From the NCBI GenBank assembly GCA_951406725.2, contig OX597840.1, forward strand, positions 35,898,001-35,962,000: DNA of 64,000 nucleotides, given 5' to 3'. Below, one piece after another: positions 16,980-63,031 of this stretch. The stretch's first letter is position 1. The number at the start of each line of letters is the position of its first letter. The position numbers were made by a program, and so were the translations under genes. The notes under the pieces were generated by a model, which saw only the letters and a list, made by a program, of their open reading frames with translations, did not search any database and had not been told where the DNA came from. Source of the stretch: Octopus vulgaris. Taxonomy: Eukaryota.

Positions 16980-17810
16980 TCAATGCGGATAATACATGGA
17001 AGAACGAATGTCTATCCAACTTGGACCCAACAGAGGAACCAGCCATTCCAGAAGACGACCGTATGATCGAGAAAGCAGTTCAAAGTATGAATGTAGGGGA
17101 AGCTCTTGGACCGTCAGGAATTGGTGCTGAAAGGCTTAAAATACCTAACAGAGTAGGATATGGCATAGTTCCCGTACAGAAAGATGTCACACCCGACGAT
17201 CGGCGTTGTAGCATTCTAAGGATCTGTCACTAGGGTAACTTACTTGTATTTGTACTTGTGGCGACATTCACCCTGGGCGGGTTGAGTCGGCTTCTTCCAC
17301 CACCCTCGAGGCATCTCGAACCATGGCAGTGGAAGAAGTTTTGTGGGAATATGAATTTCACAAGCGGTCCCCAACAATCCCGCATGTAAAGACATCCTGT
17401 TTGCCGCAGATTGTCCGCAGACGCAGGGACAGAACGACCGAGGAACCGCCGGTTGCCGAAACAGACACTCCGAGGATTTTCACCTGAGCCCCGTCTGCCG
17501 GGTCATGGCCCTAATACCACTCGGTGTCAGACCAATCCGCCTTGGGTGGCCCTACCAGGAACCGAAGTTCCCGACGGCATAGCTTTGACACTACCCGTTT
17601 TCAATGTCCCAACCACGGCGAGGAGGGATGGACTTTGGGGACGCGTCACTAGGGTAAAGGCAATGTTTACCCTTGTAACACTGCAATTAACTCTCTCAGA
17701 GAGAATAATTTCGGACGTATCAAATTAGTGGAGCAGATCATGAAAGATGCTGAAAAATTAATTTGGAAGAGAATTAACCAAGAAGGGGAGCCGTACGGTT
17801 TTGTGTCAGG
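16980..17810 (+). mobile_element. Degraded RTE LINE RT N-terminal region, interrupted by a nested element
   Basis: IEKAVQSMNVGEALGPSGIGAERLK (the KA.GPSGI.AE.LK motif), then after the insertion GKGN...IKLVEQIMKDAEK...YGFVSG. Confidence 0.75.
17239..17644 (-). mobile_element. Short non-autonomous RTE (BovB-like) derivative with 13-bp TSD
   Basis: TSD GTCACTAGGGTAA at 17226-17238 and 17645-17657. Minus strand has the RTE 5'UTR-like AGCTATGCC...GGTAGGGCCACCCAAG and a (CAAGTA)-type 3' tail. Confidence 0.75.
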
Positions 17811-17811
17811 A

Positions 17812-18065
17812 CATTGTATCACATGGCCACGATGCAACGAACATTATATTGGGGAAACAAAAGCGAAACTAACCAACCGTGTAAATGTGCAAAGACATCA
17901 AATAAAACATCCCGCACTTAGACTCATACCATGTAGAGATCCTATGCACAAGGGGGAGTTACAATTATCTCTCTTCATAAAATAAATGAAGAGAACGACC
18001 TCCTCTGGAAGGCAAAAGAAGAATATTTCATGAGATTTCTGAGTCCGAAACGAAACCGAAATAGT
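17812..18065 (+). mobile_element. Degraded PLE GIY-YIG endonuclease fragment
   Basis: CITWPRCNEHYIGETKAKLTNRVNVQRHQIKHP matches the PLE EN pattern C..C...YIGET...L..R...H..QI. Confidence 0.8.
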
Positions 18066-18135
18066 CAGCAACAATTTTACAGAAAACAACTTTCACTATA
18101 TTGCGCCTCTTATTGTTCCTCTCTGCCTCTCCCCC

Positions 18136-18197
<62 letters not shown>

Positions 18198-61340: not shown

Positions 61341-61482
61341 ATCACTAACCTGATCTTTCAGCAACCCCGATGGTTGCAGGTTTGCAGGACGCGGAGCAAA
61401 GTGAGAAATTGAGGGACATAGCAACTGATGAAACGCTTATCTTGGGCAGAAGGCAACCCCTTAGCCTAAGGTAACTATTGGC

Positions 61483-61708
61483 AAGGCGGCGGACTGGCAG
61501 AAACGTTAGTACGCCGGGCGAAATGCTTAGCGGTATTTCGTCTGCCGTTACGTACTGAGTTCGAATTCCGTCGAGATCGACTTTGCCTTTCATCCTTTCG
61601 GGGTCGATAAATTAAATACCAGTTACGCACTGGGGTCGATGTAATCGACTTAATCCGCTTGTTTGTTCTTTCTGTGTTTAGTCCCCTGTGAGTAGTAAAG
61701 AAATAAGA
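61483..61708 (+). mobile_element. SINE family B nested in the PLE, with 10-bp TSD
   Basis: TSD AACTATTGGC at 61473-61482 and 61709-61718. Confidence 0.9.
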
Positions 61709-62338
61709 AACTATTGGCTAGTTCGGCATGAACAGACGGGATAACGCATTCGCAGTGTCCGGGTGTGGTGATGACAGATATTGACCGTGTCGGTGCATGC
61801 ATGCGGGTGGATCCATTGGGACAGGTGATGGAATGTTTTTTGCAGGGGAAGGTGTGGCCTGCAAGGGCGGAGGTTTGGTCTGCTGCGTTGGATGCCCGAA
61901 TTGCGGAGAGTTGTGTATGGGCGAGACGGGGAATGCTTTGTCGGAGCGCTCGCGGGTCCACGGACAACGGGTCCAGAAAGCCGGTATTCACCAAATTCCA
62001 TTGTGCGAACCTGTGGAGACATGTGATCACAGAATGTTTATAATTTTACCTTCCCATGAGCTGCATGACACAGGTTGGGGTGGAGGAGAGATGGAAGAGA
62101 AACGGTTTATTAAAATGTTCAGGCCTGTTCAGAACGGAGGTGGCAGCGGTGACACAACAACCAGTTAATGGTGTGAATTTATGGATACAGACAAGTTGCG
62201 GAGTGTCTGTGCACTTGGGGGTAGTGATGTTTGGGGGTATGCAGGTTGATCAAAGGGGTATTCTAGAAGTTCAGCTGATTAGAGCATTCTGGCAGGTACT
62301 GGAATTGTCAGGATCTCAGCTGTCAGCTGCACGCATTT

Positions 62339-62378
62339 GAAATCTGATGAGTACACTATGTATGAAAGGTCTAATTTC
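62339..62378 (+). ncRNA. Minimal type I hammerhead ribozyme motif
   Basis: GAAAT-CTGATGA-GTACA-CTA-TGTAT-GAAA-GGTC-TA-ATTTC, with a perfect 5-bp stem I. Confidence 0.7.
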
Positions 62379-62434
62379 CTTCAAATACCATAATGAAAAC
62401 CGGGAAAACCATCCTATGTTTTAACTTCATTTAA

Positions 62435-62470
<36 letters not shown>

Positions 62471-62473
<3 letters not shown>

Positions 62474-62744: not shown

Positions 62745-62985
62745 GATAAAGGGTGAAATATAATTAATTTTAATAAAATTAATAAATTTCACTTAGTAGT
62801 TTTTTCGCTATGGAAAGGACCATATTCGGTAAACATTATATATAATAATAATAAAGGGTTATTTGCAACAAGTTGCTTAAACCACAAACCGAAAATATTA
62901 GAAATATTTAAAATACTTCTAATATTTCTAATATTTTCGGTATGTGGTTTAAGCAACTTGTTGCAAATAACCCTTTATTATAATT
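62745..62985. mobile_element. Fold-back insertion related to 671-1013
   Basis: ~60-bp arms at 62848-62908 and 62921-62981 with one mismatch; the upstream segment is homologous to 675-765. Confidence 0.7.
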
Positions 62986-63031
62986 ATATATATATGTATA
63001 TATATATAGAGAGTGTATATATATAAATATA

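Follow-up and report, generated by a model that had tools for sequence, protein, structure and literature searches.

A one-stranded cluster of A-to-G changes in a Penelope-like element of Octopus vulgaris, very probably a record of RNA editing

The element and its family

The window, by which we mean the whole 64,000-nucleotide stretch of Octopus vulgaris DNA analysed here, contains at 61376-62437 a 5'-truncated Penelope-like element that is interrupted by a younger SINE. The parts of the element and its 3' junction are listed below.

61376-61482, + strand: 5' piece of the truncated element, from between reverse transcriptase and endonuclease; three-letter alignment with most sister copies begins at 61376; A>G changed
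61473-61482, + strand: left copy of the 10-bp target duplication of the SINE, bearing two A>G changes (61480 and 61481)
61483-61708, + strand: nested high-copy SINE-like repeat, of very high depth and not A>G changed ("SINE" is the label of an earlier note on this DNA)
61709-61718, + strand: right copy of the target duplication, with the same letters as the left copy and the same two G's
61719-62333, + strand: main hyper-changed body, comprising the end of the open reading frame (stop at 62166-62168) and a 3' untranslated part
61764-61790, + strand: remnant of a CX4CxxC zinc-finger linker, recognised from sister translations and alignment
61875-61922, + strand: GIY-YIG endonuclease core, in which the family's LIYCI...LYIG has become LVCCV...LCMG through A>G-only codon changes
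62334-62437, + strand: unchanged 3' end, with a hammerhead-like motif visible in the letters (about 62338-62378) and a tail
62438-62471, no strand: (TA)n run at the 3' junction; a similar run lies beside several sisters

The copy is without the reverse transcriptase core, ends at the usual 3' boundary of the family and is 5'-truncated as its sisters are. The earlier note, made from the letters alone, had drawn the element as 61345-62440; clear homology runs from 61376 onward, and 61345-61375 aligns only weakly. The decayed GIY-YIG frame that it had read, VACKGGGLVCCVGCPNCGELCMGETG...VHGQRV, is present and spans 61794-62165, and the CX4CxxC linker, whole in the sisters, is disrupted in the window copy by changes other than A>G, including a stop. 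When the nested repeat is removed, the sisters align uninterrupted across its site. The window copy is most likely a functionless fossil. At its 5' junction there is a small fold-back (61347-61382), not significant as a hairpin (z -1.36), the right arm of which extends over the element's first changed bases; further on, at 62837-62992, a 72-bp inverted repeat with arms 97% complementary and 12 bases between them lies within an AT-rich repeat.

The genome comprises 227 contigs with 2.8 billion bases. A search of it with the DNA of 61709-62440 scored 40 of 564 candidates and yielded 54 matches, the long ones being 68-74% identical to the query. The open reading frames of two sisters, L003 (27.2 bits) and L021 (26.5 bits), exceed the PF01541 cut-off of 22.6, and the window copy, which itself gave no Pfam match, is 51% identical to L021 over 122 amino acids. 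Translations of the sisters contain the linker CNDNRCGTC and a CCHH motif (CPNC...H...H), both partly decayed in the window copy. The longer sisters L047 and L048 have a YLDD motif upstream and Atlas clusters with PF26215 at 0.96; their candidate reverse transcriptase region has no match in Pfam or PDB. An inverted piece of the family occurs at 18 of 53 loci within the 1.5-kb flanks that were fetched, and the window copy is a single truncated piece without an inverted or tandem partner piece. Together, the C-terminal GIY-YIG domain, CX4CxxC linker, CCHH motif and upstream YLDD of the sisters would fit the Neptune/Nematis type, an assignment by motif. Elements of that type are described as having a C-terminal GIY-YIG domain with CCHH, a CX2-5CxxC linker, a hammerhead-like motif, 5' truncation, inverted pieces and AT-rich targets (PMC8557442, PMC11167929), and the family studied here has all of these in common with them. 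The available parts of those descriptions mention no edited copies, in which the present case differs.

In the hammerhead-like motif the core letters and stems I and II are visible and the family 6-mer is palindromic, and the motif gave no ribozyme match in Rfam and an unremarkable fold (z -0.16). The earlier note had suggested that AGGTCT in this motif reverts to a palindromic AGATCT by undoing one edit. In the fetched loci the motif has 65 matches, and AGATCT is absent from the list of their 20 most frequent variants; AGCGCT leads with 30 of the 65, and the AGGTCT of the window thus differs from it by two transversions, not by an edit. Nor can the fragment around 17812 (17692-17982) serve as the related, unedited counterpart that the note had taken it for, since it belongs to another family, gives no DNA match and is 48% identical over 40 amino acids. 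The region 17692-18140 is a second, much shorter Penelope-like 3' fragment, of that other family, which keeps YIGET and ends at a (TA)n run.

A>G changes along one strand

To describe the changes we took as reference the majority of 29 sister copies and compared the window copy with it over 799 columns. The two differ at 184 columns, and the differences are dominated by sense-strand A>G: 120 of 328 family A's (36.6%) are G, against 8 of 200 for T>C (Fisher p 3e-20), with 13 G>A and 5 C>T. At the top sister rate of the 29-copy set (6.6%) the A>G count has a binomial p of 3e-56. Sisters left out in turn gave 1.0-6.6% A>G, and 100 other fetched family loci gave 0.9-6.8%, with a median of 3.1%. 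The remaining 64 differences of the window copy (8%) lie inside the sisters' range, as does its sense-strand G>A rate (9.4%, sisters 2.2-13.7%), so that there is no G>A excess of APOBEC type (13 against 120 A>G). The family majority is rich in A (332, against 141 G). At the changed columns the sisters have A in 95% of cases on average, and each of them has at most 7 of the window copy's G's; by these last two observations the change ran from A to G, and in this copy alone. Ordinary mutation is expected to account for about 10 of the 120 G's, and a few of the sites are A in other organisms. No parent locus was singled out among the sisters, any of which shares at most 7 of the differences other than A>G.

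The region first drew attention by its composition. The counts reported for it in the earlier note, 51 G and 20 A in 61801-61920 and a single TA in 61801-61980, are exact on recount; because other 120-base stretches of the window reach 75 G, G-richness alone is unexceptional, and it is the comparison with the sisters that is exceptional. Within the coding part, A>G changes fall at all three codon positions (25/50, 16/41 and 16/39), and 32 of the 42 codons changed by A>G alone are non-synonymous. Both GIY-YIG tyrosines have become cysteine in this way, as had been noticed from the letters. Nine of the ten codon reversions listed in the earlier note involve A>G only; the exception is gcc at 61857, where the family has Asn and not Thr, which needs a second, non-A>G change. 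Judged as sequence, a spread over all codon positions with mostly non-synonymous effects and loss of the tyrosines is not how a living subfamily would evolve.

The changes have a sharp 3' limit. From 61397 to 62333, leaving out the SINE, 119 of 287 family A's are G (15 of these sites lie in 61397-61482), whereas the last 104 bases (62334-62437), which hold the hammerhead-like motif and tail, have 1 of 41 (Fisher p 6e-8 against the body). The edge of the changed tract thus falls just 5' of the hammerhead-like motif, and in the whole tract, some 720 bases long, about 40% of the adenosines on this one strand have become G. A dip within it, with 3 changes at 20 sites, occurs at 61993-62052 and may correspond to a break in a duplex.

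We considered the bases next to the changed sites in a test on 308 sites of this one copy. The A>G rate depends on the 5' neighbour, falling from T (32/60, 53%) through A (58/137, 42%) and C (18/61, 30%) to G (10/50, 20%), with a trend of z 3.96 (one-sided p 4e-5) that is missing from the pooled sisters (z -1.1). Depletion of 5' G, which the earlier note had expected at edited sites, is significant on its own (10/50 against 108/258, p 0.004), and every one of the 4 TAG sites has changed. The order T>A>C>G is the 5' preference U>A>C>G given for human ADAR1 and ADAR2 (PMC3113232). On the 3' side the bias is not significant (G 51, C 40, A 38, T 33%; p 0.29). Its order follows the one given for ADAR1 in the same source, whereas invertebrates have been grouped with a 3' A preference (PMC5625713) and G ranks highest here; with no significant bias and with published preferences differing between groups, we place no weight on the 3' side. 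Decay of newly formed CpG was considered as a cause of the low rate after C and is ruled out by the family CA sites, of which 15 have become CG and 1 TG.

Order of events, inheritance and frequency

The nested SINE provides a relative date. Compared with the majority of 21 copies it has A>G at 2 of 47 sites and 14 differences in 217 columns, which agrees with the earlier observation that it has no G excess, and the 10-bp target duplication that had been reported around it, found at 61473-61482 and 61709-61718, is identical at the two places, each with two A>G changes. Because the SINE is normal and the G's are present in both target duplications, the A>G changes preceded its insertion. In a pairwise screen of the other repeats of the window, 34 skewed alignments were flagged, and five flagged regions compared with their own majority proved to be ordinary or simple repeats.

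The G's are also present in independent DNA. We compared assembled contigs from 8 of 24 listed runs, carrying five organism labels (A to E). Contigs from X2 (organism A, second study), X5 (B) and X6 (C) extend over 104 changed sites in 61687-62363 with 5, 14 and 12 differences, respectively, counting all letters, and other contigs of these three runs join the element to the same 5' flank. Pieces from X9 (organism D) have 3-5 differences. X1 has zero substitutions but may be the source sample of the assembly, and we do not count it as independent. The most informative copy comes from organism E (X13 and X15, from two studies), in which a contig over 61720-62116 has 45 differences, at about 89% identity, and is far nearer to the window copy than any sister is. 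It keeps at least 44 of the 67 G sites in this interval; among 29 listed differences, 22 are off the changed sites and 7 on them. At 14 listed places where the window differs from the family, organism E has the family base and yet it keeps the G's, and the G's therefore predate many of the other changes. From this likeness and the shared G's, in a comparison that covered the element without its flank, we infer that the copy in organism E is orthologous to the one in the window. Since most of the G's occur in DNA contigs of five organism labels, including a copy diverged by 11%, they are old inherited DNA and not an artefact.

Edited copies are rare in the family. A motif in which eight family A's may be either A or G has 71 matches, of which the window copy carries 7 G's and the other 70 none or one; a copy changed at 40% is expected to show at least two G's in this motif about nine times in ten. 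A second motif has 102 matches, and among the 100 listed there are three with two G's besides the window copy, all of them ordinary once fetched. With 16 copies common to both motifs (counted by eye), about 155 copies were covered in all, so that about 1 in 155 is edited, namely the copy from which we started. There was no second edited copy among the 100 fetched family loci, whose highest T>C share is 10%, and the 271 most heavily changed bases, used as a query, matched nothing above 72% apart from the window. A motif requiring a G has 7 other matches, each with that one G. These are L071-L077, seven of the 70 other copies, which share a single G in the first GIY-YIG tyrosine codon, TAC, have no other motif G and are otherwise ordinary; the shared G is either a subfamily variant or a repeatedly changed site.

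Origin of the changes

The reading that best accounts for these results, and that we consider very probably correct, is that ADAR hyper-edited the RNA of the element in a long duplex and that this RNA was then reverse-transcribed into the germline. This is the proposal of the earlier note, that an edited transcript was reverse-transcribed and integrated, and it is supported; the note had named four outcomes that would speak against it (mismatches not dominated by sense-strand A>G, no 5'-G depletion, a G-rich family consensus, and A's in genomic DNA), and none of them arose. We suggest the following course. A family transcript would have paired with antisense RNA, supplied by an inverted arm of the parent locus or by another transcript, and ADAR would have converted about four in ten of its adenosines to inosine. 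The last 100 bases or so would have escaped, through either the partner's not including them or their being shielded by the hammerhead fold or a bound protein. A functional protein, translated from an unedited message or made before editing, would then have reverse-transcribed the RNA from its 3' end, reading inosine as G and stopping early at 61376. The copy would have integrated beside the TA run in a germ cell or early embryo and been inherited, with the SINE inserting later and ordinary decay acting thereafter.

The nature of the duplex can be narrowed to some extent. Neither the window nor the next 40 kb downstream contains another piece of the family, the 5' flank has no inverted arm, and an unedited sister folds on itself no better than shuffled sequences (z -0.7); the duplex would have been at the parent locus or formed in trans, and if it was at the parent locus no partner is expected at the window locus. 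Inverted pieces are described as frequent among Penelope-like elements (PMC8557442). Those listed for the present family include, in many cases, the 3' end, the part that is unchanged here, and the partner was therefore not a typical short inverted end. Sparing of the 3' end implies either a long partner without the last 100 bases or shielding of those bases. By analogy shielding seems plausible: in a lizard Penelope element a protein assists folding of the hammerhead and starts reverse transcription just downstream (PMC11167929). As to the enzyme, four loci of the genome (G000) encode the adenosine-deaminase domain PF02137, at C6:132220394, C5:47612985-47629530, C30:5583407-5586233 and C1:137351422-137357997. 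The locus at C6:132220394 is ADAR2-like and matches human ADAR2 structures (E 3e-79).

Four alternatives were weighed. The one that survives best, and that we nevertheless think improbable, has ADAR acting on a host read-through transcript of a copy already inserted, followed by a retroelement protein acting in trans or by copy-back onto the same locus, with the life cycle of the element uninvolved. Hundreds of dispersed copies with frequent inverted pieces could let host transcripts form duplex, and ADAR-type changes are reported in host mRNAs carried by L1 in cultured cells (PMC11702581). Against it, the window copy has the family's usual 3' boundary and a 5' truncation like that of its sisters, and an inverted partner is absent from the window and from the 40 kb downstream; no unedited reference for the flanks of the copy was found. 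We give still less credence to an adenine deaminase acting on the plus strand of DNA, single-stranded at integration, or to a tRNA-type deaminase. Such deamination would give the same strand and direction of change, and only one of the four deaminase-domain loci has been identified further. TadA-type enzymes prefer a 5' pyrimidine over A, however, whereas the order observed is the T>A>C>G of ADAR; the minus strand has no excess (T>C 8/200), and we know of no natural animal DNA adenine deaminase of this kind.

Less probable again is a single event in which a reverse transcriptase placed C opposite A at a high rate, for instance from a skewed nucleotide pool. Pool-driven hypermutation by reverse transcriptases occurs in vitro, and an event of this type would yield sense-strand A>G in one copy, but here the first hundred or so bases were copied unchanged (1/41) before a jump to about 40%, the neighbour bias matches ADAR, and the other mismatch types remain at the level of the sisters. 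The least credible alternative, a G-rich subfamily, slow gain in place (by transcription-linked asymmetry or GC-biased conversion) or an assembly error, draws on the stretch being GC-rich for the window and on the inability of the assembly alone to exclude error, and is largely refuted by best relatives that are at most 74% identical and share at most 7 G's, by the window copy being the only one with more than one G among the 71 A/G-tolerant motif matches, by mostly non-synonymous changes that struck both catalytic tyrosines, by the unchanged SINE and five other repeats of the window, and by the presence of the G's in runs from several studies.

That edited RNA can be written into DNA is known from avian retroviruses and from pseudogenes in cultured cells, and fixed hypermutated copies are known for APOBEC. 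In cultured human cells, 3 of 235 insertions of L1-made processed pseudogenes carry ADAR-type changes, within inverted Alus (PMC11702581); as here, edited RNA was reverse-transcribed and integrated to leave clustered changes in DNA, but those events are somatic, induced and confined to Alu hairpins in host mRNA, whereas here the element's own sequence is changed over at least 720 bases and is inherited across organism labels. The avian retroviruses RAV-1 and avian leukosis virus are A-to-G hyper-edited (Felder 1994; Hajjar and Linial 1995, cited in PMC8586724) and likewise record ADAR-type changes on retroelement RNA via reverse transcription; they are infectious viruses, whereas here a Penelope-like element has become fixed in the germline of an animal. 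APOBEC "DNA-edited" LTR retrotransposons in vertebrate genomes (PMC4866542, PMC2873906) resemble the present case in that a single hypermutated copy is fixed and is detected by strand-biased clusters against a consensus, and differ in showing G>A from C-to-U on cDNA rather than A>G from RNA; one of these surveys filtered for G-to-A, and "ADAR" is absent from its main text (PMC4866542). Finally, RNA hyper-editing of repeats, including lizard Penelope and at a very high level in octopus, has been described (PMC5625713), which makes Penelope RNA a known ADAR substrate, with 5' G depleted as it is here; those changes are in RNA only, and the ones here are in DNA. Our literature search, with most subscription papers outside its reach, found no report of a germline-fixed, ADAR-hyper-edited copy of Penelope or another retroelement, which does not show that there is none.

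The window copy can be viewed as the ADAR counterpart of APOBEC-edited retrotransposons. Editing of RNA is regarded as something that is not inherited, and here about 110 ADAR-type changes stand in inherited DNA, apparently made in one step, and have outlasted a split with 11% divergence. We infer from this that retroelement RNA would have been a target of ADAR in germ cells or early embryos, and that heavy editing need not prevent a template from being reverse-transcribed and integrated. Edited DNA copies of this kind may be mistaken for RNA editing or missed by repeat annotation; collected genome-wide, they would form a dated archive of editing in the germline and serve as barcodes of the way in which the ends of Penelope elements are built. 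More tentatively, ADAR hyper-editing might be a recurrent germline mutagen in this lineage that leaves edited Penelope RNAs in inherited DNA lasting across species splits, and the tract edge before the hammerhead might mark the part of the RNA kept unpaired or protein-bound to start reverse transcription, a proposal that we think somewhat more apt to fail than to hold. If it is true, such fossils can be used to map the mechanism of Penelope elements, which is still unsolved, and they preserve the specificity that ADAR had in ancient germlines.

An effect of ADAR against retroelements, which the earlier note had raised, is unsupported: the copy is without the reverse transcriptase core in any case, its edited RNA still integrated, and there is no second edited copy. 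The effect on the family is small, and an edited fraction of about 1 in 155 speaks against defence as a general role. Restriction of L1 by ADAR1 in human cells involves no editing of L1 (PMC5224506).

Other copies of the family show arrangements of their own. In L023 (1425-3149), frames that by their motif resemble the start of the open reading frame come after its end, and a partial tandem of this form would supply the 5' end of the family. L033 and L034, which lie 5.6 kb apart, are nearly identical and belong with L040, L055, L057, L058 and L059 to a subfamily in which the alignment of the 3' part breaks up into several short pieces of greater divergence, which suggests a longer 3' region with internal repeats. 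L006 and L030 (G000:C5:4217829-4220194) are two long copies back to back, a locus that could give a long hairpin RNA, and the motif search suggests that L102 consists of back-to-back copies too.
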